A DNA stretch of 63,497 bases, the filler included, from Craspedostauros australis (lineage: Eukaryota): assembly GCA_030167865.1 (NCBI GenBank). It is 11 parts of 11 records of this genome, joined end to end, with 100 filler letters (N's around TTAATTAATTAA, not from the genome) between each part and the next. Parts side by side here need not be neighbours in the genome. Positions count along the whole stretch, not along the records: positions 1 to 6,851 come from JALAGF010004612.1; 10 more parts are not named here. One strand, 5' to 3'. The first letter of the stretch is position 1; the number at the start of each line of letters is the position of its first letter. Below are positions 110 through 44,623 of the stretch, one piece after another. A model generated the notes under the pieces. That model was not told the origin of the DNA. It saw only the letters and a list, made by a program, of their open reading frames with translations, and searched no databases. Position numbers and translations under genes: made by a program.

Positions 110-408
110 TGCTGATACGATGGTGTGCAATGATCAATGTTGTGAATTAGTATTTATGAGGAGCTGCATTGGTTGTTGCAGGTGTTTCGTCTCCTCCTGA
201 TCCACCGCGGTGATCGCGGTGATGTGCGGCCTTGCGGCGTCTTTCTACTCGGATCCACGGATTGTGTTCCTTGTCCTGGCCTGTTCCTGCTGTTCCTTCA
301 CCTTCGGCGAGGCTCGCCGAAGGCCGGGTTTGGAATGTGACGTGGTCCGGGTCAGGAAGCGTTTGGATGGTTGCACTTTGTCGTGACTGACTGGGGACTG
401 GATTGGCA
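110..408 (-). repeat. 3' LTR (299 bp)
   Basis: Direct repeat of 5355-5653. Preceded on the minus strand by the short purine-rich GCGAGGGTG (PPT-like). Confidence 0.97.
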
Positions 409-3400
409 CACCCTCGCGGAACACCTTGCATGCTTCGTAGTGCATTTTTGGCGCTGTCGGCGGTAGGTTTAAGATAGACGCCCCTCATGAGTCGATGATG
501 AGAGGTGGGGTGATGCTTGGTGAAGTAGTCAGCTAAGTTCTGGCCGCCCGGCGCCCAGTAGACGACAAACTGTCCTTGTTGGATGCGGTCGCGGACCCAG
601 TAGAAGCGCATGTCCATTGCTCGAGTGCGACGTTGCTTCATGGTGCCGTTGACGACGCCAGTGGCAGTGGAGTTGTCGGTCTTGACCGGGGTGGGTGGTT
701 GGGGATGGCCCATCTCGTTGAGCACAGTGCGGATGGCTGCTGCCTCGGTGCAGTTGTAGTACAGGGCACCGACTTCTGCCTCCGCTGCGGATGCCATGAC
801 GTGCGTCATGCGGTTGCACACGGTGAGGACAGCGCCGTTGTTGGGGACCGGCCGGCCTGGTGCAGCTCTCGGGTTGGTGGAGGGCTCGCCCATGTAGAGA
901 TGGCCTCCTGCGCGGCTTCGGGCCTTGGGTAGGCTCATGTAGGACGCGTCGCTGTCGACATGTAGCACCATGGAACTGCTGTGATACACGATGGTGGCGT
1001 TGGGATGTGTTGCTGCATAGTCCAGGAGCCGGTTCACCGCACGCTGCGTGTTCTCGGTCGCGTGGGCTTGCTGGGTAGCGATGTCGTGGATCGCTGGCAG
1101 CATGGTGGGATCGACTGCTCTCGCGTAGTACAAGAACGTGCCAACCACCTGTCGCATGCGCTCGATGTCCTCGGGCGGGAGTTTCGCAGACTTGTCTTCC
1201 GGTGTGGGTGCCTGTGAGGAGGAGCCGTACATCGGAGTGGCGCAATGAGCTGGCGAGTGCTGCGGTTTGTCGGGAGGCGGGTGCTGGAACTTGTGGAGCG
1301 CCTTCGCGACGTAGTTGGGCATGGACAGCTCGACAGTGCGAGCCAAGTAGTCCCACTTGAGGCGGATCCCACAGTAGAGATCTCCGGACCACTCTATGGT
1401 GATCTTGTAGATGGATTCCAAGGCTTTGATGAGATGCCGAGCATGTTCCTCACCGACGTATTTCACGCCGAAGTCGTCAACGACGAGCGTGAAGGAGATG
1501 GGTCGTTGGTCGTGGACCCAAAGTCCTGGGGTGTGTTGAACTGGACGATACCCGTACTTTGCCAAGTGCTTGGTGAGCTTCTGATTTGCGATGCGGCCTG
1601 CTTGTGGCAGCCCATACATTCCCTTTTGAATCTCCACGTACACTTGGCCGTTGTCAGCTTTCGCCGCGAGTTGGTACTGTTGGACGATCTCATCGGGCAT
1701 GAGGGAGAGGGGCATGCGCATGTACTCGAACCGCTCCATCTCTGTGTTCAAGTAGAAATCTTTGATGTCGATGGTCATGTACTTGGCATACGGCGTGGAG
1801 ACGACACTGTTGAGATGGCACTTAACTGCTGTGAGTTCGGCGGTTGGTGTGTGCACCTCAAAAGGGTATTCGACGAGATTTCCGCCGACGGTCAGTCGTG
1901 TGCGATGGGTCTCGGCCTTCTGAGGGCGCACAGCGCAGACGATGCGCCCGTAGGTGGGCTTGCGGTCGTTCGGCATTTGTTGGCGCTTGATGAAACGGAT
2001 GGTGTTGGTGGCTCGTTCCGCGGTGACGCGAGTTCCCACCCCTTGCGCAAGACGTCCGATCTCGTTGGCAAAGGACTTCTTCCACACGTCGGGGTCATGG
2101 CCGTGCACCTTCCCGGAGACGAGATGCCGGTACTCGTAAGACTTGCCAGTGGCCTCGTCGATGACAGCGTTGGCCTGTGCTGGGTTGCCCCATCGTCGCC
2201 GCTCGATCGCTCCAGTCGCCAGGCGCGTGCTGCGTCCTGGTGGGACAGCAATGTCAGGTTCAGTTGGCGCAGGCATAGCTCCGGTGGCAGGGCTGCGGGG
2301 TTCGTCGGGGACAAGGTTGCCGGCTGGCGCGTCGGGTGCAGTGGCCGCCAGTGGGGCCGTAGGCACCCTCGGAAGTTGGCGCCTGCTGGTGGTTTCGATT
2401 TCGCCGGGCTCGTATGGCACCCTCGGAGGTAGGCGTGTCGGGGGCGGTACCGGCGTCGTGGGAGGCGCTGGTGTGTCGGCAATTGGCACGGGCATGGTCG
2501 TCGGGCCGATGACTGGGGCCGCCGGTTGCGGTGGTGCGCGGGGCACGTTGCCTCGCAGTGGGGCAGCACGTGAGAAGATGGCAGATAGCTGACGGATGGC
2601 ATCAAGCTGTGCGTCGCCGATCTGCGTTTGGGTGGCCTGTGGCTGCTGGAGTGCGCTGGCTAGGTCAGAGGCGGCGGCGATGGCCGCTTCTGCCGTGGAC
2701 AGGAAAGGCAGAGTGCAGTGTGCTGGTTGCAGTTCAACGGTGTCGGTGATGCGGACACCTCGTGTCTTCGGGTTGTACACTTTGTAACACCGGTAATGCT
2801 CCAGAGCGGGCTCGACGTACCAGCAGGAGACGGCATGGGGTGCCCACGTCGCTCGCGCCTGTGGCTTGATGTGGACGATGGCCTTGGTGCCAGGCGGCGC
2901 CATAGGCGTGGCATCAAAGTTGTAGGAGCCGTAAATGATTTGGTATGCAGAGACATGCGGGTTGACACGCGAGGCGCGCATCATGTTGAGCGTCATATCG
3001 CACTGTGGCAAGAGTCGGCACCACAGGGTTAATGGAAAAGCGGCATCTGCCGTGGCGAGACCTGCGATGAAATGGTCTTTCCACGTGGAGATGGCCCGCT
3101 CAGCCGCGTTGCGTCGATGGATACCTGGAGGCACCAGCTGGTAGTCAAGGCCCTTGGACTGGATGAGCGTCCTGAGAGCAGACGGTGCTTCGTTGTCGAG
3201 TTTGTGAAGCTTCGGTCGCAGGCCGCGGGCAATGAGGAGATCGAGGAGCTCTCCGCAAGCGGTGGTGAGTTCTTTGGACGATCGGTTGCGCATGGGCCTG
3301 GATAGGATGGCGTTGCTGTCGTAGTCGTACAACACCATGATGTATCGGAACCCTCGACTGGACTGCACCGGGAACGCTCCGGTCTGGTCGGTGTATACCT

Positions 3401-4145
3401 TGCCAGTGGGCTCGAACACGGATGTGAAGATATCATGTGTGCGTTCCGTGGTGCCGACGGGCTCGGCAGCGGCCTGCATTGCTCGTCCTTTGGTGGAGCG
3501 TGAGTTCTGGTACTGTTGGCGCATGTGGCCGTGCAATGTGGCAGCGGACGGTGGGAGGTGCTGGCGCACCAATCCTTCCGTCAATCCAGGCCAAGTTGCA
3601 AAGAATCCCTTCTGTATTGCCACGGCCCACGTCGAAACGTTGGGGCTGAAGCAGCACTGATGGTAATACTTGATGAGGTCTGACTTGGATCGAAGGATGG
3701 AGGCGCGGTTGGCTTGACCCAGCGGTGGTTCGATGCCGACGCAGTACATTCCAGTGGCAGGATCATTGTGGCCGGAGAGCACTACTCGGTTGTCGTGGAT
3801 GACGCGGACGGCGCTGGCGTCAAATTCCACCTTTGCACCGGCCGCACAGATCTGTCGGACAGATAGAAGTGGGCGGCCGGCCAGATCGGGGAGAATTCGT
3901 GCCGTGCGGGCGCTGTCGGGGAGCGATGGTAGATGGATTTGGGCTACCTGTGTGGACGCGATGGTTTCGCCGTTGGGGAGGCGGACGCGCATCGGGTCAG
4001 GATCTGGCCGTGCATGTTGGCACGGGTCTTGCGGACGAAGAAAGTGGTGCGAGCAGCCTGAATCAATGATGGCTAGGGCAGACGTCGATGGAAAGGTGCG
4101 TACTAAAGTATTAGCCTGTCCAGTGGTTGGCGCCTGCCGTGGCGG
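147..4145 (-). CDS. pol: Copia Pol (PR-IN-RT-RNase H), in frame with gag after one TGA
   Basis: Protease IIDSGCSHHF lies upstream of the called Met at 3992. Integrase motifs YTDQTG, LDNE, NAAERAI. RT motifs KGMYGLPQAG, LVVDDFGV. RNase H motifs DSDAS, AEAE, TDNST, NLADYFTK. The stop lies inside the 3' LTR. Confidence 0.93.
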   Translation of the reverse strand, partial: PPRQAPTTGQANTLVRTFPSTSALAIIDSGCSHHFLRPQDPCQHARPDPDPMRVRLPNGETIASTQVAQIHLPSLPDSARTARILPDLAGRPLLSVRQICAAGAKVEFDASAVRVIHDNRVVLSGHNDPATGMYCVGIEPPLGQANRASILRSKSDLIKYYHQCCFSPNVSTWAVAIQKGFFATWPGLTEGLVRQHLPPSAATLHGHMRQQYQNSRSTKGRAMQAAAEPVGTTERTHDIFTSVFEPTGKVYTDQTGAFPVQSSRGFRYIMVLYDYDSNAILSRPMRNRSSKELTTACGELLDLLIARGLRPKLHKLDNEAPSALRTLIQSKGLDYQLVPPGIHRRNAAERAISTWKDHFIAGLATADAAFPLTLWCRLLPQCDMTLNMMRASRVNPHVSAYQIIYGSYNFDATPMAPPGTKAIVHIKPQARATWAPHAVSCWYVEPALEHYRCYKVYNPKTRGVRITDTVELQPAHCTLPFLSTAEAAIAAASDLASALQQPQATQTQIGDAQLDAIRQLSAIFSRAAPLRGNVPRAPPQPAAPVIGPTTMPVPIADTPAPPTTPVPPPTRLPPRVPYEPGEIETTSRRQLPRVPTAPLAATAPDAPAGNLVPDEPRSPATGAMPAPTEPDIAVPPGRSTRLATGAIERRRWGNPAQANAVIDEATGKSYEYRHLVSGKVHGHDPDVWKKSFANEIGRLAQGVGTRVTAERATNTIRFIKRQQMPNDRKPTYGRIVCAVRPQKAETHRTRLTVGGNLVEYPFEVHTPTAELTAVKCHLNSVVSTPYAKYMTIDIKDFYLNTEMERFEYMRMPLSLMPDEIVQQYQLAAKADNGQVYVEIQKGMYGLPQAGRIANQKLTKHLAKYGYRPVQHTPGLWVHDQRPISFTLVVDDFGVKYVGEEHARHLIKALESIYKITIEWSGDLYCGIRLKWDYLARTVELSMPNYVAKALHKFQHPPPDKPQHSPAHCATPMYGSSSQAPTPEDKSAKLPPEDIERMRQVVGTFLYYARAVDPTMLPAIHDIATQQAHATENTQRAVNRLLDYAATHPNATIVYHSSSMVLHVDSDASYMSLPKARSRAGGHLYMGEPSTNPRAAPGRPVPNNGAVLTVCNRMTHVMASAAEAEVGALYYNCTEAAAIRTVLNEMGHPQPPTPVKTDNSTATGVVNGTMKQRRTRAMDMRFYWVRDRIQQGQFVVYWAPGGQNLADYFTKHHPTSHHRLMRGVYLKPTADSAKNALRSMQGVPRGCANPVPSQSRQSATIQTLPDPDHVTFQTRPSASLAEGEGTAGTGQDKEHNPWIRVERRRKAAHHRDHRGGSGGDETPATTNAAPHKY

Positions 4146-5306
4146 TCAGGCCGTCGCGCCCTTGGCGGATCCTCCCAAGGTGTTGGCGGCAGTGGCCTCC
4201 TTCTGATGGCCGTGGGCAGGGTTACGGCACGTGGCGCTGTTGTGGCCGGTCGCGACGCGATGCCCATGGGTCCAGCAATACTCGCCGTTGGTCTGGCGTG
4301 CGGAGCGGACTTGCTTGGCGCTCTTCGCTTCTGCCTGCAGGCGTGCGATGGCGGCATTGGCTTCAGCGAGCTGCGCTGTCAGTGCTGCGTTGGTGCTAGT
4401 GAGGAGGGCCACCGCGTTACGGTCGGCGGCTGTGGCCTGCGCGAGGTTGGCAAGGGCTTCGGCCGTCATGCTGTCGTCGGGAGGTGGCTCCTCGCCTTGA
4501 GCATGGTTGGCTTGGAATCCCTGCTGCCCGGTGGTGACTCGGGAGTTCACCATCTCCTGGTACGCATCGGCAAAGAAGGTCTTGAACTCGGACCAGGTCT
4601 TCTGGGCTTGCGGGCGCATACGCCACTCACGGCAGGTTTCGACGAACTGGTTGGTGTCAAAGATGAGGGCATATGCGCGGGAGACGACCTGTGCGGAGGT
4701 GTAGGGTACTCCTGCTGCGTTGGCAACTTCCATGGCATCCTCCACTTGGTCCACGAGGACCTCGAATGGTTGTTCAGTGTTGAATGGTGTGCGGAAACGG
4801 GTGTCGTTGGCCTCCATGTCGATTGGAGTGAGCTTCCCATAGGTGTCGTACAAGTGCGTCAGGATGTCGAAGGTGGATACGTTGGTGTATCCCACCACAC
4901 GGTGACGGAGAGTCCTGTAGAACATCTCGCCGAAACACGCAAGGACCTGCTGCTTGAGGGCCTGTTCCATGACGAGCATCTCTCTCCAGAGCTCGGTGGC
5001 TTCTTCGTGTTCTTTCTGATGTTGTCGGATCTGGGCCTGTGTGCCATTGGGCATGGCGACGTAGGGACCAGGGTTCGCGGGCATGGCGAAGTCGATGTCT
5101 CCGGAGAGTGCGTTGTACTCTGCATTGGAGACAGTGAGAGCAAGCCATCCCAGGCTGCCATTGCCGAGGGGGCAGTGGACAGACGCTGCGTTGGCGTTGA
5201 GCTGGAGGTGGACAGCGGCGATATCCTCGTATTGAGGCGTACCGTGAACCACGGGAATCGTTGGGTGTGGGAACCCGTCGGTGTATCGCTCAAGAGATCG
5301 GACCAT
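4146..5306 (-). CDS. gag: Copia Gag (386 aa)
   Basis: ORF starts 48 nt after the 5' LTR. C-terminal Cys/His knuckle YCWTHG...HNSATC...H. Confidence 0.9.
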   Translation of the reverse strand: MVRSLERYTDGFPHPTIPVVHGTPQYEDIAAVHLQLNANAASVHCPLGNGSLGWLALTVSNAEYNALSGDIDFAMPANPGPYVAMPNGTQAQIRQHQKEHEEATELWREMLVMEQALKQQVLACFGEMFYRTLRHRVVGYTNVSTFDILTHLYDTYGKLTPIDMEANDTRFRTPFNTEQPFEVLVDQVEDAMEVANAAGVPYTSAQVVSRAYALIFDTNQFVETCREWRMRPQAQKTWSEFKTFFADAYQEMVNSRVTTGQQGFQANHAQGEEPPPDDSMTAEALANLAQATAADRNAVALLTSTNAALTAQLAEANAAIARLQAEAKSAKQVRSARQTNGEYCWTHGHRVATGHNSATCRNPAHGHQKEATAANTLGGSAKGATA

Positions 5307-5354
5307 GGTGGACGATGGTGTGGCTCTCGAGAGCGTGCGATACTAATTCACAAC

Positions 5355-5653
5355 TGCTGATACGATGGTGTGCAATGATCAATGTTGTGAATTAGTATTT
5401 ATGAGGAGCTGCATTGGTTGTTGCAGGTGTTTCGTCTCCTCCTGATCCACCGCGGTGATCGCGGTGATGTGCGGCCTTGCGGCGTCTTTCTACTCGGATC
5501 CACGGATTGTGTTCCTTGTCCTGGCCTGTTCCTGCTGTTCCTTCACCTTCGGCGAGGCTCGCCGAAGGCCGGGTTTGGAATGTGACGTGGTCCGGGTCAG
5601 GAAGCGTTTGGATGGTTGCACTTTGTCGTGACTGACTGGGGACTGGATTGGCA
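5355..5653 (-). repeat. 5' LTR (299 bp)
   Basis: Direct repeat of 110-408. Begins TGCCAATCC and ends TATCAGCA on the minus strand. Confidence 0.97.
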
Positions 5654-5900
5654 TCCTCCTCGTTGTCGTGAGTGCGGCCGCCTTTCTCTTTATTCTTGGA
5701 TGGAGAGAGTTCTCGGTTGATCAACTCTTCGTGGTCGATCGTAGATCCGTAGTAGCCATGCACTCCCGAAGTGTACTCGGCTGTCTCCTCCCTGATCCAC
5801 TCGTAGTCGTTGAATGGTGTTCCGCTGTCAAAGTCGGAGACATCATCATTGTCAGTTGTCACGAGTATCCATCGTGTAGTTTCCCGTGGTCACATTATTG

Positions 5901-6034
5901 TTTTGTTGTTCGCGATTTCGGTGATGACCACGAATTTCGCGCTGGTCACATTTTTGATGTCGACCGCGTTTTTGTTGTTCGCAGTTTCGGTGGTGACCAC
6001 AAATTTCGTGTTGGTCACATTTTTGATGTCGGCC
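5901..6034. repeat. ~2 copies of a 69-bp tandem repeat
   Basis: tttgttgttcgc at 5902 and 5971; tggtcacatttttgatgtcg at 5943 and 6012. Confidence 0.8.
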
Positions 6035-6851
6035 ACATTTTCGTTGATGGCCGCGCACATCAACTCGTCAATGATGAGAGCGATGTCATCCATCCCGTCA
6101 ATCGCGACGTTGGTCGACTCAGCCTCCTGCATCGCGGCCTTTGTTTGTCATCGCGGTTGCTCTCACTCTTGGCATCACCGCTATTCTTGCTTTTGCCTTT
6201 CATTGGCAAGCGTTGATCCGTCATCTCACTGTCGTGGGCATCACGGTGAGGACAGTTGGTCCCAAACCGATCGATCCGTAGTCAGCGTTTTCTCACTCTC
6301 ACTGTTGTTGCCTCGTGCGCGCTTATAACCGATTTTGATACGGTGGCGGTCGTAGATGAGGCTCATGCTTTGCGGATTTCTTGAGTCGTCGTTTTCTCCG
6401 ACGGCGAGGATACCTCCTGTTCCTCGACTTTCGTCTCGAGCGTGGGATCGAAGCGCGGTCGGACCTCCCGTCCACCTTGTTGCAGCACTGTCCCTTCTCA
6501 TCGAAGCACACACTTCCTGTGTTGCTATTTTTATTGTTGTCGCCAATTCATGGCTGGTAGGTTACATCCTTANNNNNNNNNNNNNNNNNNNNNNNNNNNN
6601 NNNNNNNNNNNNNNNNNNNNNNNNNNNCGATGGCCAACAGCGCCATGTGATCATCTCGGTGCTTCCATTGCTGCTCCTCGATTGCATCTCGTTGAGCTCC
6701 TTCAGCTATCTCGCCTTCATGGCGCAGTCTGCTGAGTCTGATGCGTCCGAGAGTGTGGCCAGCTGCGTTCGAATCTCTTCTTGCGAGCAGCTTGCTCTCG
6801 TGCTCCAACCTAGCCGTGAAGGTCTCCGTGCCTTCCTCGACTTCATGGTCC

Positions 6852-6951
6852 NNNNNNNNNNNNNNNNNNNNNNNNNNNNNNNNNNNNNNNNNNNNTTAAT
6901 TAATTAANNNNNNNNNNNNNNNNNNNNNNNNNNNNNNNNNNNNNNNNNNNN
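6852..6951. other. Artificial contig linker (also 10612-10711, 12596-12695, 14996-15095, 22843-22942, 26437-26536, 34891-34990, 40477-40576, 60516-60615, 61916-62015)
   Basis: Identical 44N-TTAATTAATTAA-44N block with stops in all six frames. Confidence 0.98.
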
Positions 6952-9900
6952 GGTTCCACGTGGATGTAACCTGAAGCATGGTCTACGAAGATGGCTCCTC
7001 CCTTGTGCATGTCGGTTGGGTCGCCTTTTCCTCGTCCTGAGAAGAGGCGTCCTGGTGTGCGTCCGATGAAGTGGTCAACGGATACTTGTTGGCCAGGGAA
7101 CAGGTGATCGGTGCGTAGGGCTCCTTGTCTGTCACGGACAACATGCTGAGTTATACCTGGTGATGGGCGTCGGTGCAGTTTTCCGAACTGACACGCAGCG
7201 CAGAGGGGGAGGCTCATCACTTTGGCAGCTGCCGTGTGCATCTTCTTTGATGCTTCGGACCCTGTGAGCACACCCGATCGCAATAGGAACTTCACTCGAC
7301 CGAAGGATAAGTGTCCGAGGCGATAATGCCATCGAAGGAGTTCTTTTTGCGGTTCGGATATATTCACGTTGTGTTCCGAGACAGTTGAGACGATTGAGGA
7401 GAGTGCCGATGGAAGGTCGTGGATGTTGTCCGAGCCATATCCAGTTGAGGTGGGGAGCTTCGTCGTCTTCTTGTAGATCGCGATGATTGCGTTTCGGTTG
7501 TCGCTTCCCTTAATTCCGCTGAGTTTGCAGGAGGTCTTGTCAAAGGTGATGGTCTCACCAGGGTATTCTTCCAAGAGGCTTGACGTGCTGATGAGCTTGA
7601 CGCGTGATTGAGGCACATGGAAGGCGGGTAGTCGTAGCGTACGCGGGCTGCCCGTCACATCCAGAACGTGCCACTCCACAGTCCCGAGCGCTTTCACTTG
7701 GATCTTTTTCAGGAATCCATTGAGAAAAGTCGGTTTTGGAGGAGCGTTTGGGGTATCGCAAAAATCGTTGATGTCGTTGGTGACAGAGATGGATGCCCCG
7801 CTGTCCCACACAAGCTCAAAAGGTTCACTGGGGGACAGATAACCTTCGGCCTTTTGGGGGGAGGCGAAAGCGTGACGATTAGTGAAAAAGGAGGCAAGGC
7901 CATGGAGAGTCAGGAGATTTTCGAATGAAGTGGAGCACGCTGTAGTTTCGCGTTCACCAGTCGTGAGGTCGAATTTGGGGTAGAGACGCCAAAATTCATG
8001 TGAGAGGGGTTGACCTCCAAATGTGGGATGGTGGTGCCGGTCGGTCACGCAAGGCGATCCTTGAGGTGGTGAATAGTGTCTTTTGCCATAAGTGGGTGGC
8101 TTGGTTGACAGTTTCGGACCACCTCGGTTGGGACGCCTTGGTTTCGATTTGTGAGTTTTGGTTCGGGTTCGGCGAACCCAACGACGCTTGTTTTGTTTTG
8201 GCGTCCGGTCGGACGTTTTGGTCCGCTCGATCATCACATCATGAAGACTGCGCGTTACAGCTTCATTGAAGCGGGTTGGACGAACTCGGTGTCGCTGGGT
8301 TTCTTCCTTGATCCTCGCCTTTGAGTAGGTCAGATCGTTGGAGCGGAGAGTGTGTGGCCTTCGCGGGACGTTGGTGTGTAGTAGTACCAGCGTGATGGCT
8401 GTGATCATCCAAACGTTTGCCGCTGCGATATACCATCCATGTTCAACTCCCAGTGCGATGACTTGAAGCGTTGCGAAGAACAGGATTACGCCAATGGTTC
8501 CATTGAGATAGTTGAAGGAGGTGAAGAGGTTCCAGACTAGAGACCACCAGGTGTCTTCGTCCTGACTGGCTGCGGCGGTGAAGCACGTCCAAGCTGCCAT
8601 GTCGATTTCGAGGTTATCAGTTTTGGGGTTCGCCTTGCCGGTTGCCTTAGGTTTGAAGTTGTCCTGGTGACTCTCTGTGTTGTGCGAGAGGCGCCATCGG
8701 CGACACTTGGCACACCACATGAAGGTCTTGTCGTTGACGAGCTTGCGCTGTGGCTCCCCGGGCTTGGGTGGCGTGGAAGACCACCCACGATTGGAGTTAC
8801 GATTGCCGTCGTGTTCTCTGCCCTTTTTGGCTGGCACCTTCGTTCCGTTCTTCTTGGTGAACCCTCTGTGTTGTTCGAGGACGTTAGCGCTGTGCTTGTT
8901 CGTGGCGTTGTTCGCGTACGAAGTTCTAGGAACACCGGTATCCCTGACGCGTCGAGTGGCATGCCAGCGGTCCCCGCGTACCTCGTTGTCGTACGAGGAC
9001 TGTGCCTTGTTGCAAATCGCCATCCACGTGAGGTCCTTGGCGGCCAGCTTTGGCAAGGCGTGCTCGTACGTGAATACAGGGAGACGCATGAGGATCTTCT
9101 CAAGGTCATCCTTCATCACATAGAGAGGACGTCGGTACTGTTCACCGGAGAGGCTCTTCCCTCCCGCTTGGAGGAAGGCGTCAAGGATGTTGCGGAGGAG
9201 ACGGAGGTCGAAGCGACCGGCGTCGTCGAGGCGTTTGCAGAGCGAACGGAGATGGACGGCCATGGATCCCACGTTGTCACCAGCAAACTGGTGGCTTCGA
9301 ACGGAGCGAATGCGATCCGTGATCATGTCTTGCTCATCCAGCGAGTTGGCCGTGATGCTGTTCATGAACTCGATGAAGAGCGTGATGAAGTTGTTGTGGT
9401 ACGTCGGCTCGATACGGTTCATCAGCTGGTCTTCGAGGGTTGGATCAAGGCTGTCACGGAAGAAGGCTGCGGCCGTCCAGTTGTTCTGGACGTCGTAGTG
9501 GTCCCATCTTGGACTGTACTCATCGAAGTGCCTTGTGGCGTCCTCAAGAGTGAAGGAAGCCGGAGCATCGAGAACACAGGTCATCTTGGATGTGGCCGTG
9601 TCGTTGGAGATGTAGGCCATGGTGATGAGTCCGGTCTTGGACAGGTGATTGCGCACAAGGCGAACGAACTGCTGAATGCTGTTCCCTTTCTTGAACTTGT
9701 CAGTTAACCCAGTTTCGCGCTTGGATTGGTTGGTGGAGTCCGCCCCGTTGTGAAGGATTCTCTGCTGTTGGGAGTTCGTCCACATGGTCTGGGATTCGTC
9801 TTCGAGGCCCGTCCAGGTTGAGTTCGGTGCTCCTCCTGTCCAGGGGACCCAGTTGCGGCCTTGCAGGCGGAGGCCTCCCATGATGGGGGCCGTGGGCTTG

Positions 9901-10238
9901 CCGGAGAGGTCGGGGTCTCCATCTTCGCTTTCACTGCCGGGATCGTTCTTCCTTTTGGTCGCTGGCGTCTCAATGTCACCAAAGAGACTCCCGCTTAGGA
10001 AGGAGGGGTTGAGGTCATCACGGGTTGTCGTCCCGGCTCCGCCTGGGTTGAGACCGGCGCGGAGAGGGGTGGCGCTGGTTCCCGACGCTGTTTGCGTGGT
10101 TGCCGCTGCCACCCTTGCAGCTTCTGCAGCTGTTTCGGCTGCGATTGCGGCCTGTGTGAGGCGCGTATTCTCAGTGGTGAGCGCTTGGAGCTGCGCTTGC
10201 AGCTCTTCCAGCGTGAGGGGGTTAGCCTCATCCGCCAT
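6952..10238 (-). mobile_element. Second, unrelated copia gag-pol ORF (gag, PR, pre-integrase Zn finger, start of integrase), truncated by contig end
   Basis: Knuckle WCAKCRRW..SHNTESH, protease WDSGASISVT, Zn finger WHYRLGH...CAACQFGK, integrase VSVDHF. Confidence 0.9.
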
Positions 10239-10711
10239 GGTGGATGGCGTGGGCTTCAGAGAGGTCTTCGGACTTCACGGATCGATCTTTCTTGCGTCCT
10301 GCTGATTTCGCTTGGTCTCACTTCTTGGAAGGTGTGCACTGAGACTCGGCGAAAGCTCTTGAGGAGGCAAGCGCTTGGTGTTCAAGCGGTTGGGTTGCTT
10401 GCTTGGCAGAGGCTGCTGTCAGGTGACACTGTCGGTCACTGGCAGGTGGGACTTTTGTCTTGGGTTGCTCGGTTTTCGAGCGATGGCGTCTGACGATGAT
10501 TCAGATGCATTCGGATGAAGACCCTGAGGTCTTGCTTGAGTTGGGTTGCTCGGTTTGCGAGCTGCGCCTTTTGGCTTGGTCTCTGAGAGACCGTGCGAGC
10601 GGTTGGCAGAGNNNNNNNNNNNNNNNNNNNNNNNNNNNNNNNNNNNNNNNNNNNNTTAATTAATTAANNNNNNNNNNNNNNNNNNNNNNNNNNNNNNNNN
10701 NNNNNNNNNNN

Positions 10712-12595
10712 GGTCTACCATCGTAGATTTGATTGTCTGTATCCGAATCTGTGTCTGCTGTGTTGTTGATTGCTCCCTGAATAAACCAGTTTGCGTGTTC
10801 GCCGTCATCACCTGCTTCTCTGTTGCTGCCAGCGGCTTGGGCGACAATGACTCCGAATGCCCCTCGCAATGTTTCCAACGAAACCGAAACACTGCTGCGA
10901 TGATTCAGCATGTTACGGTAGGTCTGCAGCACCGTTGCGTTGTCCAGGTCTCTATTCGTGTGAACATCGTCTGTGCAACAGTAGTGCATTAGCTTGTGCA
11001 GAAACAGAAGGATGACTTCCACAATCCGTACCACTGCTTGGCATTGGAAGGTTGCGAATGGCGGCTGCACCTTGTGCTGCCTCATCATCCTGGTCATCAA
11101 ATCAGAGCCGCCCTTGAATGAATTCCAACGGGCTACAAACGATGGAACCAAGGTGTGGACCTTTGGCACCGGCATTGGTAGTTCCTGGCATGCCTTCCAT
11201 ATCATCAATTGGTGGAATACATCCTCTTCTGTCAATGACGCAATGTGTTTCCCCCCGGTTGAGCCCATGTGGGGGTTGCGTTTCGAATTCAGATACTTTC
11301 GCAGCGTCTTGCCTGACGCTGCCTCGCGGGACGCGGCAGTGGAGTGCGCGTATGCAAACTCCAACTTCAGCTCATACAGATTTTGTAGCACGATTCCGTA
11401 TGATTGAAGTACATTGGGTTGGAAGTGTGTGGACATTGATCTTATGGTGTTAGCAGTTGCATCACCTGGTGGTAGGAGGAGGTTGGTTCGAGAGGATCAG
11501 TGGAGAAAAGCAAGAACAGTTGGAGTGAGCACCGCGTATCGACTTTTGAAATTCATGGCAGGAGCTCCATCCATTTCATACAAGGACGTACCAATTACAA
11601 TCATCGCCCCTGTCACCCCAAAGACGAAGGCATGATGAAGCAGTTGAATCATCTCTGATTTCTTTTCGAATAATGNCCTCCACTTGTCGTCTTGGAGATC
11701 CACGAACACATGGCTCTTTCCCTCTGTCCCATGCTCCCAATCGGCCTTCCGCTGGTGCCGTCTTTCGAGGTCTTCTGTGTCTGTCGTTGCCCGAGTCTTG
11801 ATCTCCACAACAAAGACTTCATCGTCGCTGTCGTCCTCTGGATCACCGACGATTGCAAGGAAGTCGACGGAGGCGCGGGCGTATGGTGCATTGGTGTTTC
11901 GCACCACCCCCACTTGGTATGTTGCCTTCACTTGCCTTCCCTCGCCGCCCACTCCAACACAGTGGAGGGCCTGCTTCATGAGGGGAGCTTCGTTTTTGTG
12001 GCCCAGCTTGGCGAGCTTTCCAGCCTTGCCCCGAACCGACTTCATGAACCACGATTGTAACATGAGAGTCGTGAGGTCGTNGTCAAGCTTGTGCATCCAC
12101 TCTGAAGTGGTGCTTCCTGCCTGGAAACTGGATGGATGGTCAGGCTCCTGCTCGATCTCCTTCATTGCCAGGGCAACCAATCTCTCCACAACCTTCTCTC
12201 GTGGCATTTTCGTTATGTTGGTCTTGGGGAGACGAGCCTTGAGGTCTTTCTTGAGGGAGGCGTCGCTGAAGGCCAGGAATCGCCGTCGAACCTTGTCATC
12301 ATCAGCAAGGATGGTGCGGAGCATTTTGCATCGTGTGGCTTTGCTTCGCTGGGCCTTGCTGCGGTAAAAAATAGCCATGAGTTCGATGAAGTCTTTGTCT
12401 GAGAAGGTATCCTCTTCAGGGGCATCGTCGCGGAGAGAGGAGAGAAGTGCAATTTCAACATGACGGGAATTGAAGGTGGGAGATGTGAGTTTGGAGTATA
12501 AATCAAGTGCGCGCAATCTCGCCTTTTCTGCTTGCAATGCTTGGAGGTACTTCGCCTTCCGACCAAGCACGTCATATCCCAAGTAGCGGCCAATG
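10712..12595 (-). mobile_element. piggyBac-like transposase/YqaJ-nuclease fusion, copy 1 (partial; intron 11466-11591)
   Basis: Nuclease motifs LGHKNE, ASVDF, VEIK (EIK 11797-11805) and QLLHH are spliced via a GT-AG intron to ARWNSFKGGSD, which resembles the piggyBac YN..MGGVD motif. Collinear with 20900-22110. Confidence 0.75.
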
Positions 12596-13656
12596 NNNNN
12601 NNNNNNNNNNNNNNNNNNNNNNNNNNNNNNNNNNNNNNNTTAATTAATTAANNNNNNNNNNNNNNNNNNNNNNNNNNNNNNNNNNNNNNNNNNNNTGTCG
12701 GAATCGGTTTTGTGTCGACCATCAATCCATTTTGTGAGCGCACGAAACCAAGACTGGCAACTCGTGACTCGAATCCGAACATCAGATCCGAACCACGAAA
12801 CCGAACATCGATTGAGCAAACACAAAACAACAAAAACAACAATCGGCCAATTCGCGCCAAAACGCACTCAACCAACACCTTCCATCGTCAACCTGTGCGC
12901 TGAGAAGGTGCCTTGCACATCCAACGCATGGTCCGTTCGTGGGACCATGCCCTAAGTGCTAAGCTTCGTACGGATGGCAACGCAACAAAGAAGTCGTTCG
13001 TCTATCTAAGTTCGTTCATGGAGCGTTATCCTGTCAAGGTCATCTTGCTGAACTCAACAAACTTCGGCCAGCGAAATATTCCCAATCTCGCTCCATCTCG
13101 ATCAACATCTTCCGCTCTCTCTGTCTGCCCGCAATCACGCGCACAGCACCGCGATACGCCGCACTGAACCTCGCCATGCATCCTGCACCTCAAGCAACTA
13201 ATCATAAATCACTCGTTATCAGATTACAAGACTTCCTCTCCACCTTTCTTTCCTTGGTGTGCTTGGATGGTGCGATGAGACAGGCCATCAAGAGGAATGC
13301 AAACCAACAGTATTACGGACCAAGGAATGAGACTCAACTGCTCTGTTCTACTATATCACTCTACTCTGCAAACCGACCATCTTGACACAGAACGATCATC
13401 CACAACGTTGATGGCGATCTGCCGATGCGGGAGAAACTTTCGGCGGTGAAGGTCACTGCAGAAGCCGATCAAACCAAGGCAGTTTGCAACGCAGCCGGCG
13501 GAGGGAATCGCACACTCCTCCACACGCATGCCAAGCCAGAGACGCTGCTGTCTTGGAGCACATGATCCCGGACAACCACACCGATAATGCACAAAGAAAA
13601 ATACTCTCTATTGGATTGGAGAATTGTGTGTACTTCAAGTAAGATTTGATGACTGC

Positions 13657-14995
13657 TCATGTCCTGGTGACGCCGTCAGAGAGCAGCAACGGAAAGCTGG
13701 ATTGCAAGCGATTGAGATTGCCGCCGGCATCGGTGACCAAGTTGTGTGCTGGGACGCCATGGATGGCGGATCCGATCAGCAAGGTCGATCGTTCCATCTT
13801 CTCGATCGGATTCACGTTGTCCTGGATGACGGTGCCCATAACATCGTTCTCGAAGCAATGCGTGACGCAAACGAGGACGTGCAAGGACGAGCAATCGATG
13901 GACAGCGAACCGCTCCGGCTCAGCGCATCGAGGAGGTCGAAAGCCTTGTCCTTCTCCGTCTTGATTTCTGATGAAGTGAGGACCGATGATTCCGCTTTCG
14001 TCAGGAGGTTGGCCTTGCGTTTGCGAGTCCACGAGGCGGATGTCTTGATGATCGTGGATCGCAGAGCGTTGTCGGGATCGTACTTCTCCATGGAGTCGTC
14101 CAGCATCTTCGGGATGAGAGTGAAGTCGATTTGCGTTGATGATGGTGCACTGCCGCCTGTCTCCCCCGTGCCTTCGCGAGCATCGGCAGTTATATCGACG
14201 CTCGCGTTTGCGTCTGTAGCCATTTGCTGTGTTTGGTCGAGGGAAGTGATTTGTTGTTGGATGCCTGTTTCTGCGAACAGAGGAGGAGGAGCGGCAGAAG
14301 GCTCCATGGGGACTTCTGGCATGGCCGCCTGGTACGAGGATATGGCAGGCGCCGACATCCTCATTGCCTTCCTTGCGAACAAATTTGTGGAGACTTTTTT
14401 CCGTGCGGCTGGCGCTCCTCCAAACGCCATCGGCGTTCTAGCCTTTTGCATCTCCAGCTCCATTTCGGCCTTCTTCCTCTCCTCGTCAAGTTGCTTCTTC
14501 TTCTCGGCTTCGATCACAGCCATGACGGCCTTTACGTGGGCCTTTACATTGCCGACCTTACTGTGGATATCGGCAGTCGGCAACCCATCGAATGACAGCA
14601 AGTCGGACGGAACCTGGTACTCGATGAAGAGCTTCATGAGGTCCTGCATCATTTGCATCTCCTTGGCCAGGGCGTCGGTCGGCAATCCCAACAGCTTCTC
14701 GAGCTGCGGCTTGATCTCGACGATGCAAACGCCGAACACGGAGGACTCCAGCTGCATGCTGCGGAATGCCTTGGCGAAGCGCTGTTGTTCCGGCGAAAGC
14801 GACTTGATGGCATCCTTGAACTCCTTCGCGGTGGGGAGCTCATCCAGCAGAAGCGGGATGATCAATTCATCCTTGTTTTGGACGATGATGGCGTCCTTGG
14901 GATTGAGCTTAGTGGGGCCCGCCATGTTGCCGACGATGAGGATGAAGGATGAGAACTGGCGGGCGCGGGCGATGAGGTCGTAGCTTTTCTTGGTG
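13657..14995 (-). CDS. Conserved hypothetical protein, 3' part (5' end lost in gap); resembles the C-terminal region of protist ubiquitin-like-domain proteins
   Basis: Frame open from the contig edge, with strong codon bias and a globular sequence (ARARQFSSFILIVG...LSPEQQRFAKAFRSMQLESSVFGVC). The family link is recalled, not verified. Confidence 0.7.
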
Positions 14996-15095
14996 NNNNN
15001 NNNNNNNNNNNNNNNNNNNNNNNNNNNNNNNNNNNNNNNTTAATTAATTAANNNNNNNNNNNNNNNNNNNNNNNNNNNNNNNNNNNNNNNNNNNN

Positions 15096-15180
15096 GACAG
15101 CAGAATGGCGACAGCAGAATGGCGACAGCAGAATGGCGACAGCAGAATGGCGACAGCAGAATGGCGACAGCAGAATGGCA
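15096..15180. repeat. 14-bp minisatellite (GACAGCAGAATGGC)n, about 6 copies, at contig edge
   Basis: Perfect tandem units seen directly. Confidence 0.95.
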
Positions 15181-15541
15181 GCAACAGAAGTGGTGATGAC
15201 AACAGGGATAGCAGTGGCGAAACCAACGGCAGCAAGCCGACAGTAACGGCAACAGTAATAACAAGGGTTGCAGCAGATGCACCTTTTGACATCAAACCAA
15301 GTGTAGTCTATTGATTCTTGATGTTTGTAGATGTGCAAACAATAGAGTGGCAAGATCGACGAGACCGGTAAACAAAACAAGAAGAGAGACCAGTGGTCCC
15401 AGTGTGGAAAGAAGTGTCATATACAACATGTTGCAGATGGTATGTTTGACACTCGGTTTGTCTGGGACAGCTGCTCATTTTGATGACACCCACAGGCACA
15501 TCACTTTGGAAAATGCAGACATGTTTGCATACAAGTACTAC

Positions 15542-23851: not shown

Positions 23852-24451
23852 AGTTCAAGAAAGGTGTACTGATTGAAGAGTTAACTGTAACGATGAGAAG
23901 TAGAGTGCTTTGTAGCTAATCCTTGTCTGTTTTATGAGTTAGCTTGTGGTGTTAGTAGGGTGAAGAAACGATGTCACCCAACTTGGCGAGACCCTGCACT
24001 GATGTACTTGGTTCAGTGCTACAGGGTGGACGATCATTACAGTGCCTTGCTCTCCATACATGTAGATACACTGCAGTGTAGATCATGACGCCTGGTCGTG
24101 ACGATCATGAAGCTGTGGCTGTGGCTGGAGCTGACCCTCGGATTCCATTGCTCGAGTTGAAGCAGGTTGGATACACACGTCAAAACTACGGCAGTGGTGC
24201 AGTAGTCATCAGCATGAAGGGAATCGAGGTATGTTGTAGTAAAAGGATCTGAGGAGCATATAGTTCCCAAGGTGTGGTGTGAGTCAGGTCGGTCATGTTT
24301 GAGTCATGATGGATTCGTGAATGGAGGAAAGGAAGGAGGAGAAAAGATTTGGTGGTCAATCAAGTCGGAAGATTTCGCGCCAAAACAAGAATTTCTCCCG
24401 TCGGGTTGATACCGTGTTCGGTAATAGTCTGTCCCTCATTGAATCTCAACT
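23852..24451 (-). repeat. Solo-like LTR of the copia family at 62016-63497 (left boundary tentative)
   Basis: 24051-24451 is closely similar to 62016-62417. Both copies end at ...GAATCTCAACT, which abuts the PPT in the 62-kb copy. The element interrupts the non-LTR RT. No TSD found. Confidence 0.75.
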
Positions 24452-25152: not shown

Positions 25153-25539
25153 TGCCCGACACGATGATTGGATGACTGAAATGGCCGGCGTGTCTCTACG
25201 ACAACATCGAAAATATTAACTTAGCCGTGAAGTAAACACATCAACCATGTCCCTGTCTAGTAGTGTAGAGTACTCCAGTTTTTGATGGTGTTGATGAATC
25301 CTGTTCTGCGGAAGACGAGGAGAGGGTTAAACCAACTATATTGCATACTGGCATCGGTCATGGGCATGTACCTACCTTGGGACGGTCCAGATCCAGCTGT
25401 AACGAGTGATAAATCTCATATTGCCAGTTCTCATGATACCGTTCGGTCACTGTGTGTACTATGTTGGTCATGTGTGCATACAAAATGTCAAGCATACTTG
25501 ATTAAAACAACTCCACCACTCCGAGAACACCTCAGCAAG

Positions 25540-26420
25540 TACAGTCACGAAGTATGAGGTCTCCAGTCCATCTGGAAGGCATCCATATCTGAGAATCAAG
25601 ATTTCGAGTGGTGTTGTGGGTGACAGTACTGTGAGCTACGCACCATACTGTGCAGTAGATTGTCAAAATTTGCATAGAAAATGTCAATCGCAATGAAATC
25701 CAACCAGGCGCCCACTTCCAACACACTCCAAAGGATCTGGTCACGAAGTATGAGGTCTCCAGCCCATCTGGAAGGTAGTCAAATCTGATATTCTAAATTT
25801 CGAGTGGTGTTGTGCGTGACAGTACTGCGAGCTACGCACCATACTGTACAGTAGATTTCTCATATGTGCATAGAAAATGTCAATCACAATCAAATACAAC
25901 CTTGCGAGCACTTACAACACACTCCAAAGGATCTGGCCACGAAGTATGAGGTCCTAGATCCATCTGGAAGGTATCCATATCTGGATGTGGAGATTTTGTG
26001 TGGTGTTGTGGGTGGCAGTACAACGAGGTACGCACCATACTGTACAGTAGATTGTCAAAATGTGGATAGAAAATGTCAATCACAATGAAATCCAACCTGA
26101 CGAGCACTTACAACACACCCCAAAGCATCTGTTCACGAAGCATGAGGTCTCCAATCCATCTGGAAGGCATCCATATCTGGATGTGGAGATTTTGTGTGGT
26201 GCTGTGGGTGACAGTACTGCTAGCCATGCACCAAACTGCACAGTAGATTGTCAAAATGTGCATATAAACTGTCAATCGCAATCGAATCCAACCCAGCGCG
26301 CACTTACGACACACGCCAAAGGATCTGGCCACGAAGAATGAGGTCCTAGATTCATCTGGAAGGTGTTCAAATCGATGGATCTAGATTCCGAGTGGTGCTG
26401 TGGGTGGCAGTCCGGTGCTC
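25540..26420. repeat. 196-bp tandem satellite, about 4.5 diverged copies
   Basis: Anchor cacgaag..tgaggtc at 25546, 25742, 25938, 26134 and 26330, an exact 196-bp period. Confidence 0.93.
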
Positions 26421-26536
26421 CATCTACCTCACAAGANNNNNNNNNNNNNNNNNNNNNNNNNNNNNNNNNNNNNNNNNNNNTTAATTAATTAANNNNNNNN
26501 NNNNNNNNNNNNNNNNNNNNNNNNNNNNNNNNNNNN

Positions 26537-42110: not shown

Positions 42111-42952
42111 TAGAGAATGCGTCCGGACGCAAGAAAAACGTCATTATGGATATGCAATGTGGTGTTGGTTTGATGTTGAGGGCTCTTGTTGCCCGCGCGG
42201 ATGGTGATGGTTGCAATGTGGTGGGATGGCAACCAGCCAAATCCAACTGAGATGGGTCGCAACCAACACAGGCAACCAACAAGGCAACCAACGAACGCAG
42301 TCACATCGGTGGCTTCATCGGTGGCTTCGTTGTTGTTCGAGGCATTGGCTCACAGCTCAAGTTGGTGCTTGCGATGGCAGGCAGACGAGGGTCAGCGGTC
42401 TTGCAGATGTCACAATGACGCAAGCAAGCGTGGGCCATGGCGCACATGGTGGTGGCGGCGGTGGTGGCGGTGGTGGTGATGATGACAGCTGTCTGTGTTT
42501 CCGAAGACTTTCACGTTGTTTGCTTCGGATTGGTGTTGCGTTGATTGTGGCCAAACGAGAACTCTGTTGTGGTCCTTCTTTCTTGTTGTTGGTCGCACGC
42601 ATTTTCGTGATGGATGGGAACAGAAAGATCCAATCCGCGCGAACCAGACGCGTTTGATCAAGAGGAGACAAACACAGGCAAACAGAAGGAGGAGACCATG
42701 CGAACAAGACAACAGCACACACACCACTCAACACCATACTTGAGCACATCAACAACAGGCATCGAATTGCCACTCATATTCATCACACAGCGTATGGTAC
42801 TCATACTCATACTAATACTAATACAAGCTGTTGCATACACAAACATCGATATCTCTTCCATAGGCAGCTCCGACCACAGACATCCTCGACAGCCAATCCA
42901 ACGTCCAACGTCTATCGTCCAGCAACAATCGACCATCCACCATTCTCTCAAA

Positions 42953-44623
42953 ATGCCGAGTGTTACCAACCAACAACTCATTGATGCTGCCAACAGAGGT
43001 GACTTGTCAGTGTTGAAGAAGTGGAAGGAGCAGAACGAGACACATAATGAAGGAGATGGTGTCAACTTCAAAGACATCCACGGTTGGACTCCCCTTCATC
43101 TGGCATGCTACAACGGCCACCTGGAGTGTGTCAAGTACCTCATCGAATCATGTGAGGCGGACATCAACTGCAAAAACAACGATGGTTCCACTCCCCTTCA
43201 TTGGGCATGCCACAGCGGCCACCTGGAGTGTGCCAAGTACCTCATCGAATCATGTGAGGCGAACATCAACTGCAAAAACAAGTATGGTTCCACTCCCCTT
43301 CATCTGGCATGCTGGAACGGCCAGCTGGAGTGTGCCAAGTACCTCATCGAATCATGCAAGGCTGACATCAACTGCAAAGACAACGATGGTCGCACTCCCC
43401 TTCATTGGGCATGCTCCAAAGGCCAGCTGGAGTGTGTTGCGTACCTCGTTGCATCAGCCAATGCCAATACCGACATTCAAAACAAAGACAACAAAACGCC
43501 CCTCGATATTATCGATGCAAAACTTCAAATCAAGATGATTAAACGTCTCGATCATCTGAGTCACCGCAACTCACAGCTGCAGAAGAAAAACGAACACCTG
43601 GAACAGCAGTTGGAACGGAAGGAGCAAGAGAAGAAACAGAAGGAGCAAGAGAATGAACAACTGAAACAGCAGTTGGAACAACAGTTGAAACAGCAGAAGG
43701 AAGAAATGCAGCACATGCTCTCGAAAAGTCAACAGGAGAACAAACAGCTGAAACAGCAGCTGAAACAACATCTCAAGATCAGCATCGACCAAGATCGTCT
43801 CGTCGCTATTCGTGCTGAGGCCATCGCAGACATTACCTTCCTGTGTGGACAAGGAGACGAACAACAATCAATCAAGGCAAACTCTGGAGTCCTCAGGGTC
43901 ACTGTTCCATCCATTCAGACACTGATCAACAAAGGAATCCAACATCAGCACGTGAATGATGACACCGAAGACGGCGCGGTCCCCATCGAAACAACCATCT
44001 CTCTCCCCAACCTTCAACCAAAACACGTCCGATATGTCCTCCAATGCATCTACGCAGGCGAGATATCCTTCAACAACAGCGCTCGTGACAACGCTGCTGC
44101 TCACGTCAGTGCTCACATCGGCGCTCACTCCAACTCACACCACGATACAAATGCCTCTCACCAGCCAACTCCTACCCTCACTGGACAGGATGATCTGCAA
44201 CAGCTCATCCTTGTGGCCAACGAGTTCGGCTTCTGGCGACTCAAGCTTGCTCTTGAAGCAGAGTTGACCCGCAAGCATCTCACAGAGGACACCATGATAG
44301 ATGTGTTGATATTTGCCGATCAACACAACTGTGTGGTGTTGAAGGATACCGCAATGGGGATGGCAGCTGAAAATGAGAACAAATTGTTCACTCATCCAGA
44401 TTTCAGCAAGCTGATTCCACACCATCAACTGATGGGAGACATTCATTTCCTTTGCAGTGGGGGAGCGGAGAGTGATGGTATTGATGATGAGTACAGTGGC
44501 ATGTCCATGATGGAACTGTACGAGGCGCTGGAAGAAGACGAGGGTACCACGCGAGTGGATACATACATGGATCGAGCAACGCTGGTTAACTTCGCACGAG
44601 CGTCAATAATCATCGGAGACTGA
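42953..44623 (+). CDS. Ankyrin repeat + coiled-coil + BTB/POZ domain protein (556 aa)
   Basis: Four near-identical GxTPLHxAC..GxLEC.KYLI repeats (102-nt period), a Q/E/K coiled coil, and BTB-like ADITFLC..., VLQCIYAG, LILVANEFG..RLK. Confidence 0.85.
   Translation: MPSVTNQQLIDAANRGDLSVLKKWKEQNETHNEGDGVNFKDIHGWTPLHLACYNGHLECVKYLIESCEADINCKNNDGSTPLHWACHSGHLECAKYLIESCEANINCKNKYGSTPLHLACWNGQLECAKYLIESCKADINCKDNDGRTPLHWACSKGQLECVAYLVASANANTDIQNKDNKTPLDIIDAKLQIKMIKRLDHLSHRNSQLQKKNEHLEQQLERKEQEKKQKEQENEQLKQQLEQQLKQQKEEMQHMLSKSQQENKQLKQQLKQHLKISIDQDRLVAIRAEAIADITFLCGQGDEQQSIKANSGVLRVTVPSIQTLINKGIQHQHVNDDTEDGAVPIETTISLPNLQPKHVRYVLQCIYAGEISFNNSARDNAAAHVSAHIGAHSNSHHDTNASHQPTPTLTGQDDLQQLILVANEFGFWRLKLALEAELTRKHLTEDTMIDVLIFADQHNCVVLKDTAMGMAAENENKLFTHPDFSKLIPHHQLMGDIHFLCSGGAESDGIDDEYSGMSMMELYEALEEDEGTTRVDTYMDRATLVNFARASIIIGD

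Follow-up and report, generated by a model that had tools for sequence, protein, structure and literature searches.

The window analysed here, a stretch of 63,497 nucleotides (filler included) from Craspedostauros australis (assembly GCA_030167865.1), contains a complete long terminal repeat (LTR) retrotransposon of the Ty1/copia type. The nucleotides directly following its 5' LTR, at the position of the primer-binding site (PBS), are complementary to a segment of the same LTR, and related elements retain the pairing while changing its sequence. The window consists of separate assembly pieces joined by linkers (runs of N flank the stop-codon linker TTAATTAATTAA at 6843-6963, 10603-10723, 12587-12707 and 14987-15107), so sequences on either side of a join may lie apart in the genome. 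The retrotransposon, which occupies bases 5658-105 of the minus strand including its target duplications, lies wholly within the first piece (1 to approximately 6842).

The two LTRs (5' LTR, 5355-5653; 3' LTR, 110-408) are 299 bp each, have TG...CA ends and are 100% identical. A repeat finder gives 300/300 identity, the extra base being the G that follows both LTR ends. The same five nucleotides, GAGGA, border both LTRs as a target-site duplication (5' copy at 5654-5658, 3' copy at 109-105). The gag open reading frame (ORF) at 4146-5306 encodes 386 aa with a CCHC-like zinc knuckle near the C-terminus. It forms one frame with pol, split by a single TGA at 4148-4146, after which the frame is open to position 147; pol is presumably made via stop-codon read-through and not via a frameshift. 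The pol part (147-4145) contains a protease (IIDSGCSHHF), an integrase, a reverse transcriptase (RT) of the RVT_2 family and ribonuclease H (RNase H). A polypurine-tract-like sequence, GCGAGGGTG (409-417), adjoins the 3' LTR on its 5' side, a position that suggests this function, and the GCGAGGGTGTG junction between the tract and the 3' LTR is also found in three of the related loci described below (L007, L008 and L012).

In Pfam, the domain PF07727 (RVT_2) was recognised at residues 673-903 with E = 6.5e-11, above the curated cut-off. An integrase-associated SH3 domain lies upstream of the RT at residues 366-420 (E = 1.1e-05; 25.6 bits, just under the 27-bit cut-off). Since the integrase precedes an RVT_2 RT, the element belongs to Ty1/copia. 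The Pfam search of the element revealed no chromodomain, and the order RT, RNase H, integrase of the Tf1/sushi lineage is not seen. By its RT part, the element comes closest to protein-atlas clusters in which the few members with a label are Bacillariophyta, which makes the assignment to diatom copia plausible; we take its clade to be one of diatom-like marine eukaryotes. A scan of IMG/VR with pol gave ten pattern matches, none of which was confirmed. The description of the element as an intact copia, made in the original prediction, agrees with the identical LTRs, the 5-bp duplication, the gag of 386 aa and the pol frame open through RNase H. Identical LTRs together with open frames suggest that this copy is recent and possibly active, and make it a plausible active element for functional work.

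Pairing of the LTR with the PBS in the element and its relatives

The 15 nt directly after the 5' LTR (5354-5340, minus strand) are the exact reverse complement of positions 5398-5384 within the LTR. The two segments are separated by a loop of 29 nt (5383-5355). The LTR segment (the LTR arm, or 5' arm) ends in C and is a putative self-primer; the post-LTR segment (the PBS, or 3' arm) begins with G. The same 15-nt complement occurs in the 3' LTR, at 153-139. A search of the window for the 15-mer with at most two mismatches gave four matches against 0.04 expected, and none of 100 shuffles reached four. The fourth match, with two mismatches (50235-50249), falls within non-coding, AT-rich DNA and is regarded as fortuitous.

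The longest perfect stem in the 330 nt upstream of gag has 15 nt, compared with at most 9 nt in 60 dinucleotide shuffles, and the chance of a perfect complement of the 15-mer over the approximately 285 positions of the LTR is estimated at roughly 3e-7. When the RNA is folded from the putative start to the gag ATG, the 15-bp stem is present in both the minimum-energy and the centroid structures; the fold energy is -25 kcal/mol (z = -5.0), and none of 200 shuffles was equally stable.

The post-LTR sequence begins with GTTGTG, and not with the TGG of PBSs that pair with transfer RNA (tRNA). No Rfam family, tRNA-like ones included, matches region 5200-5700 at E <= 1, and the whole window contains no tRNA genes. 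A TGG does occur in the CCATGG at the start of gag, 48 nt past the LTR; it was dismissed as a candidate PBS, given that priming requires pairing at the LTR end itself. The 15-nt complement, its coordinates, the size of the loop and the missing TGG had all been given in the original prediction, which proposed that the element may be self-primed, and this observation of complementarity is confirmed.

Relatives were collected by homology to gag. The search gave 147 proteins at E <= 0.001 with approximately 28-49% identity, all from metagenomes. The query and 42 matches, chosen for their listed JGI source, form an alignment of 43 sequences, which was used to fetch the DNA of 80 loci. Among the 81 sequences (80 loci and the present element), 61 have a gag match starting within residue 30; the other 20 have no gag N-terminus and were left out. 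At least 150 nt upstream of gag are available in 53 of the 61, and all counts of conservation use these 53. The loci left out for a short upstream region are L005, L022, L036, L045, L051, L057, L060 and L069. The same layout can still be seen in three of these: L036 has a stem of 12 bp; L045 has one of 13 bp, situated at the opposite end of its contig, which is circularly permuted; and L060 retains the 3' arm, the 5' arm being lost at the contig end.

In all 53 loci the 10-15 nt directly after the LTR end are complementary to a segment of the element's own LTR situated 19-71 nt upstream. The LTRs of the relatives end in ...ATTGTCA, ...CATCA or ...TGTTA, followed by G, and the true LTR pairs available in L018, L026 and L038 end exactly at the start of the 3' arm. 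All of the first ten positions form Watson-Crick pairs in 36 loci, nine of ten in 15 loci and eight of ten in two. In L049 and L061 the arms were placed by hand, as the automated anchor had chosen another site. The length of the longest perfect stem was reached by none of 60 shuffles in 32 loci and by one of 60 in five more; the remaining 16 have an interior mismatch, so this statistic fails there.

After identical cases were collapsed, 41 distinct elements remained. With positions numbered from the LTR junction, Watson-Crick pairs fill 395 of the 410 cells at positions 1-10, compared with 11-42% if the partner is slid by 1-3 nt. The non-Watson-Crick cells comprise approximately six G.U pairs and nine other mismatches. 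From position 11 to 13 the pairing weakens, and at position 14 nothing is left of it. All 41 elements have C-G as their innermost pair, the first base after the LTR being G, and the loop base following the last C of the arm is always a purine (41/41).

The arms themselves differ widely between elements: there are 23 distinct PBS octamers, none of which contains TGG. Pair counts and the covariation score were computed on a MAFFT alignment, A2, whose columns can be considered homologous, given that motifs in both flanks show conservation of their own (5', CTCATTAA...; 3', ...ATTGTCA). In this alignment both partners vary in 11 of the 13 pairs; cells of this kind number 112, counting sequences and not events, against 29.4 +/- 4.3 in shuffled data (none of 500 shuffles reached the observed value). 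The covariation score is 0.592 compared with 0.136 for shuffled sequences and at most 0.121 for slid controls. Covariation of the two arms had been named in advance as a check of the prediction, and its outcome is strongly positive.

Closely related elements provide recent events, which answers the caveat about cells. In L054 and L056, whose flanks are 86% identical, the second pair is swapped from A-T to T-A; in L020 and L075, with flanks 85% identical, there are two double changes. A series is formed by L042 (G-C), L047 and L012 (T.C mismatch) and L010 (T-A), which looks like a mismatch intermediate followed by compensation. RNAalifold, applied to two groups of relatives by loop length (18 and 21 sequences), predicted the helix between the arm and the PBS as the sole consensus helix, and the stem is present in the minimum-energy fold of 41/41 distinct elements. 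Taken as a natural analogue of a compensatory-mutation experiment over 41 variants, the covariation points to strong selection on the pairing across the whole clade.

The diversity of the PBS bears on the possibility of conventional priming, in which a host tRNA or tRNA half would be the primer and the LTR arm would be a regulatory 'anti-PBS' limiting its access. Several copia lineages do rely on half-tRNA primers: in Osser, Bryco and Gymco-II the primer is a half of tRNA-Met, and in Bianca a half of tRNA-Ile (PMC6317226). However, each of the 23 octamers is matched by the element's own LTR, and compensated swaps between near-identical elements are not something that a tRNA could track. One host tRNA cannot explain such a set of sites, since there are 23 octamers and the pairs change on both sides. 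The PBSs devoid of TGG and the lack of tRNA-like Rfam matches in 5200-5700 point the same way. We thus reject tRNA priming on the family-level diversity of the PBS and consider it very improbable for these elements.

Some of the related contigs have unusual ends. Many contigs of approximately 5.2-5.4 kb (L003, L013, L041, L074 and others) are circular permutations with a single LTR and exact, 100% identical terminal overlaps of 100 or 127 nt. They result from the assembler collapsing two LTRs and are not evidence of circular DNA or of transcripts. Poly(A) tails and contig ends were considered as markers of RNA ends and rejected, as the A/T runs are unrelated to the LTR ends and the contig ends are an assembly effect. 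ARAGORN, run on 17 of the 80 loci, reported one tRNA-Ala(ggc) of 84 nt (L010, 1582-1665, minus strand); it lies inside gag and is a probable false positive.

Predicted transcription start and proposed priming mechanism

A motif (T/C/A)CA(T/C)W is found directly 5' of the LTR arm in 39 of the 41 distinct relatives, and 28 of the 41 fit TCAHW. The pattern TCAH+1W was proposed as an initiator-like element of diatoms (Kadono et al., PMC4686930). In the present element it reads TCATAA (5399-5404, minus strand), with a putative start of transcription at 5401/5402. From the +1 position of the motif to the arm's last C there are 16-18 nt, a nearly constant distance (the first 20 columns of A2 are ungapped), and the last 10-15 nt of this segment are the paired part. 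The start predicted from the motif precedes the first paired base by 1-7 nt, mostly 3-6, in 37 of 41 relatives, by 11-14 nt in two decayed copies, and by 3-4 nt in the present element; in two relatives there is no motif.

Since a conserved initiator-like motif occurs just 5' of the arm, the arm is probably near the 5' end of the RNA. This suggests a start at approximately 5401/5402, that is, 3-4 nt upstream of position 5398 and not at 5398 itself; the original prediction had expected it at or near 5398. What carries weight here is the fixed position of the motif and not the motif as such. With this start, U3 would extend over approximately 5653-5402, and R and U5 together over approximately 5401-5355 (about 47 nt). 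In most relatives the arm is directly followed by (G/A)TCTTTA(A/T)C (A2 columns 21-29, approximately 5383-5375 in the window), of which the present element has a diverged version, ATTGATCAT. It may mark the place of RNase H cleavage, the remainder of R, or an element of the poly(A) site.

The pol frame extends approximately 260 nt into the 3' LTR and covers almost all of its U3 (147-408), the stop codon being a TAA at 149-147, within the copy of the LTR arm. In 12 relatives (L003, L009, L010, L013, L018, L024, L030, L034, L041, L059, L074 and L077) the stop of the long ORF lies 7-55 nt short of the arm's end, and in L041, L059 and L074 the stop codon is the TAA of the conserved CATTAA motif. 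Thus U3 is largely coding, and the stop codon, the initiator-like motif and the primer overlap.

Minus-strand synthesis defines the end of U5, as the first nucleotide polymerised becomes the LTR end. Hence the primer must pair at the LTR end or within approximately 2 nt of it. The complement begins 0 nt after the ...CA of the LTR, and the sole conserved partner for this position is the element's own LTR arm. For this reason tRNA-independent self-priming of the Tf1 type by a single hairpin, as had been proposed for this element, is the best reading, and it is supported both by the layout, present in 53/53 loci, and by the co-varying arms. We consider it probable, on comparative evidence of which each part is observed directly: the anatomy, the position exactly against the LTR end, the conservation and the covariation.

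The following mechanism can be proposed. Transcription would start at the initiator-like motif TCATAA of the LTR, at approximately 5401/5402. Nucleotides ~4-18 of the RNA (5398-5384) would fold back over the 29-nt loop and pair with 5354-5340. Cleavage by the element's RNase H behind the final C of the arm would yield a primer of approximately 16-18 nt with its 3' OH opposite the first base after U5. Extension of this primer by RT through the loop (U5/R) would produce minus-strand strong-stop DNA, followed by the usual strand transfers. The primer would later be copied into plus-strand DNA, so that the PBS would be re-templated from the arm in each cycle, and such re-templating would hold the complementarity of the arms perfect even as both drift in sequence. 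G.U pairs are nearly absent, which agrees with a PBS renewed from the primer at every cycle. Perfect complementarity despite fast turnover fits re-templating as well, and so do the mismatch intermediates, in which the arm is changed and the PBS is not. The invariant C-G junction and the purine that follows it (41/41) are indirect hints of RNase H cleavage.

One alternative is that the stem is a conserved RNA structure with another role and that priming occurs by an unrecognised route. Candidate roles are packaging or dimerisation, masking of the poly(A) signal in the 5' R, and 5'-3' cyclisation, in which the PBS region would pair with the arm copy of the 3' LTR. A similar long-range interaction exists in Ty1. 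Both LTRs contain the arm, which would allow a 5'-3' interaction here; the CATTAA/CATAAA motif 5' of the arm also resembles a poly(A) signal; and covariation demonstrates pairing, not priming. On the other hand, there is no other candidate PBS, and TGG is absent from the first 8 nt in all 23 PBS classes. A structure alone would need neither the abutment at 0 nt in 53/53 loci nor the invariant C-G junction, and G.U pairs, usual in structural stems, are rare here. Hence we regard a purely structural role as unlikely.

Another alternative retains self-priming but in trans, with the arm copy of the 3' LTR, or the arm of the second packaged RNA, annealing to the PBS, where it would be cut or serve as primer. 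The arm at 153-139 is identical, the 5' copy might not be transcribed, as the start is only predicted, and the sequence data are compatible with pairing in cis and in trans alike. However, an initiator-like motif at a fixed distance of 16-18 nt from the last base of the arm fits a local 5' hairpin, as do the short loops of 19-71 nt. Moreover, we know of no precedent for a primer taken from the 3' end of the RNA. Priming in trans therefore seems even less likely than a purely structural stem.

Several points weigh against self-priming by a local hairpin, the reading that we prefer. The start of transcription, the RNase H cut and the strong-stop cDNA are all inferred from the sequence. A start of transcription downstream of 5384 would leave the RNA without its 5' arm copy. 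The initiator-like motif may have a different or an additional role, as a poly(A) signal or the stop codon of pol, and it is a motif of low information, present in 67.9% of the 80-nt 5' flanks in P. tricornutum (PMC4686930). Approximately 3-6 unpaired nucleotides would precede the arm, unlike the situation in Tf1, where the primer starts at nucleotide 1. No conserved second or third duplex, as in the Tf1 'pretzel', was observed in the RNAalifold groups or in the folds of single sequences. In relatives with a 19-nt loop the strong-stop DNA, and whatever remains of R, would be very short. One or two of the first ten pairs are not Watson-Crick in 17/53 loci, which may be decayed copies, as we have assumed. 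Finally, A2 was cut at previously located arms, and the pair counts thus lean towards the structure.

Other features of the element and of the window

Between the PBS and the gag ATG, many relatives contain the motif (C/G)CCTCTCGAACGC(C) twice, 7-20 nt apart (L001, L010, L012, L013, L015, L018, L021, L026, L028, L038, L039 and L077). Instead of two copies, the present element has a single variant, GCTCTCGAGAGCC (5322-5334, minus strand), with a palindromic core, which resembles the tandem CCTCTCGAACGCC motif of the relatives. Our guess is that this is a candidate packaging or dimerisation signal. A 69-nt unit is tandemly duplicated with 87% identity at 5901-6038, approximately 250 nt upstream of the 5' LTR.

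The next assembly piece contains a second, different copia-like gene (6900-10238, minus strand) with an ORF of 1112 aa. The domains recognised in it are GAG-pre-integrase (PF13976, E = 1.8e-10) and, as a weak match, the Pol beta-barrel. No LTR is visible for this gene, and on inspection its 364-nt leader does not have the layout of arm and PBS.

Several repeats were found elsewhere in the window. A 14-nt microsatellite-like array occupies 15082-15207, and a tandem array with a period of 196 nt occupies 25350-26433. Another array, with a period of 102 nt (43062-43469), lies inside an ankyrin-repeat/BTB ORF (42614-44623). A dispersed repeat of 295 nt occurs at 24051-24345 and 62016-62310 with 92% identity.

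Comparison with known systems

To our knowledge, experimental proof of self-priming comes only from Tf1-group gypsy elements; in copia, it has been predicted for a single plant lineage. Were a second copia clade, in stramenopile algae, to share it, this would mean that priming independent of tRNA is widespread and probably arose more than once.

In the Tf1/sushi group (Tf1, Tf2, Tosmo, Tcn1) the experimental evidence is described in PMC7175516 and PMC10085805. The first 11 nt of the Tf1 mRNA serve as the primer, RNase H cuts between nucleotides 11 and 12, and the RNA forms the 'pretzel' of three duplexes (same sources). As in the present element, the sequence after the 5' LTR complements the element's own 5' LTR/R, there is no tRNA-type PBS, and the LTR ends in CA. 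The duplex of 11 nt in Tf1 is comparable to the 10-15 nt in the present clade. However, Tf1/sushi elements are Ty3/gypsy, whereas the present element, with its integrase before an RVT_2 RT, belongs to the other superfamily. Its arm probably starts 3-6 nt after the 5' end of the RNA, judging by the initiator-like motif, and not at nucleotide 1 as in Tf1, and one conserved helix was found in the clade, with no three-duplex pretzel.

Fungal GalEa elements are also a copia clade without a tRNA-type PBS and with a conserved self-complementary feature at the PBS position. There the PBS is replaced by the Conserved Hairpin Site, a palindrome of 9 bp into which the final A of the LTR falls, and for which the authors found no complement in the LTR (PMC5445492). 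In contrast, the post-LTR sequence of the present element is not palindromic, and in this clade it pairs with an LTR segment 19-71 nt upstream.

The CoDi elements (Maumus et al. 2009, PMC2806351) are diatom-specific and copia-like, and the RT of the present element points to Bacillariophyta clusters. The main text of PMC2806351 contains none of the terms 'primer binding', 'tRNA', 'priming' and 'PPT', and its one 'PBS' is a buffer, so the priming mode of CoDi elements appears to be undescribed in that text. The literature searched, with GyDB, Repbase and subscription journals outside its scope, gave no report on self-priming or on the PBS of diatom elements. LTRdigest filtering for a tRNA-type PBS has been applied to a diatom genome (PMC7466962). 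Filters of this kind would discard the present family, and the copia content of diatom genomes may therefore be under-counted.

The same signature is known from the plant Ty1/copia lineage TAR (including Houba and Osr-1), in which 89% of 203 elements were called self-priming (PMC6317226, supplement file 3). Thus self-priming in the copia superfamily is not new, as it was already predicted for TAR in that study. The criterion of Neumann et al. 2019 (PMC6317226) is a complement of the 5' LTR of at least 10 bp starting 0-5 bp past the LTR; in the present element the complement has 15 bp and the offset is 0. TAR elements therefore share with the present one the superfamily, this operational signature and target duplications of 5 bp. 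They differ in their hosts, which are plants, whereas the nearest RT clusters of the present element are Bacillariophyta. In addition, the plant prediction uses complementarity alone, whereas here it is accompanied by covariation in 41 elements and by a positioned initiator-like motif.

A more far-reaching reading, which we offer tentatively and consider somewhat doubtful, is that the diatom-type copia clade evolved a minimal form of self-priming independently of both Tf1/sushi and TAR, with one hairpin in place of a pretzel and with arm and PBS drifting together. In this form approximately 25 nt of a largely coding LTR would hold the stop codon, the start site, perhaps a poly(A) signal, and the primer of 16-18 nt. 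If so, the copying back of the primer in each cycle would explain both the 23 PBS classes and the series of mismatch followed by compensation. The primer of each sublineage would also be private, which would create a built-in barrier to cross-priming between competing elements.

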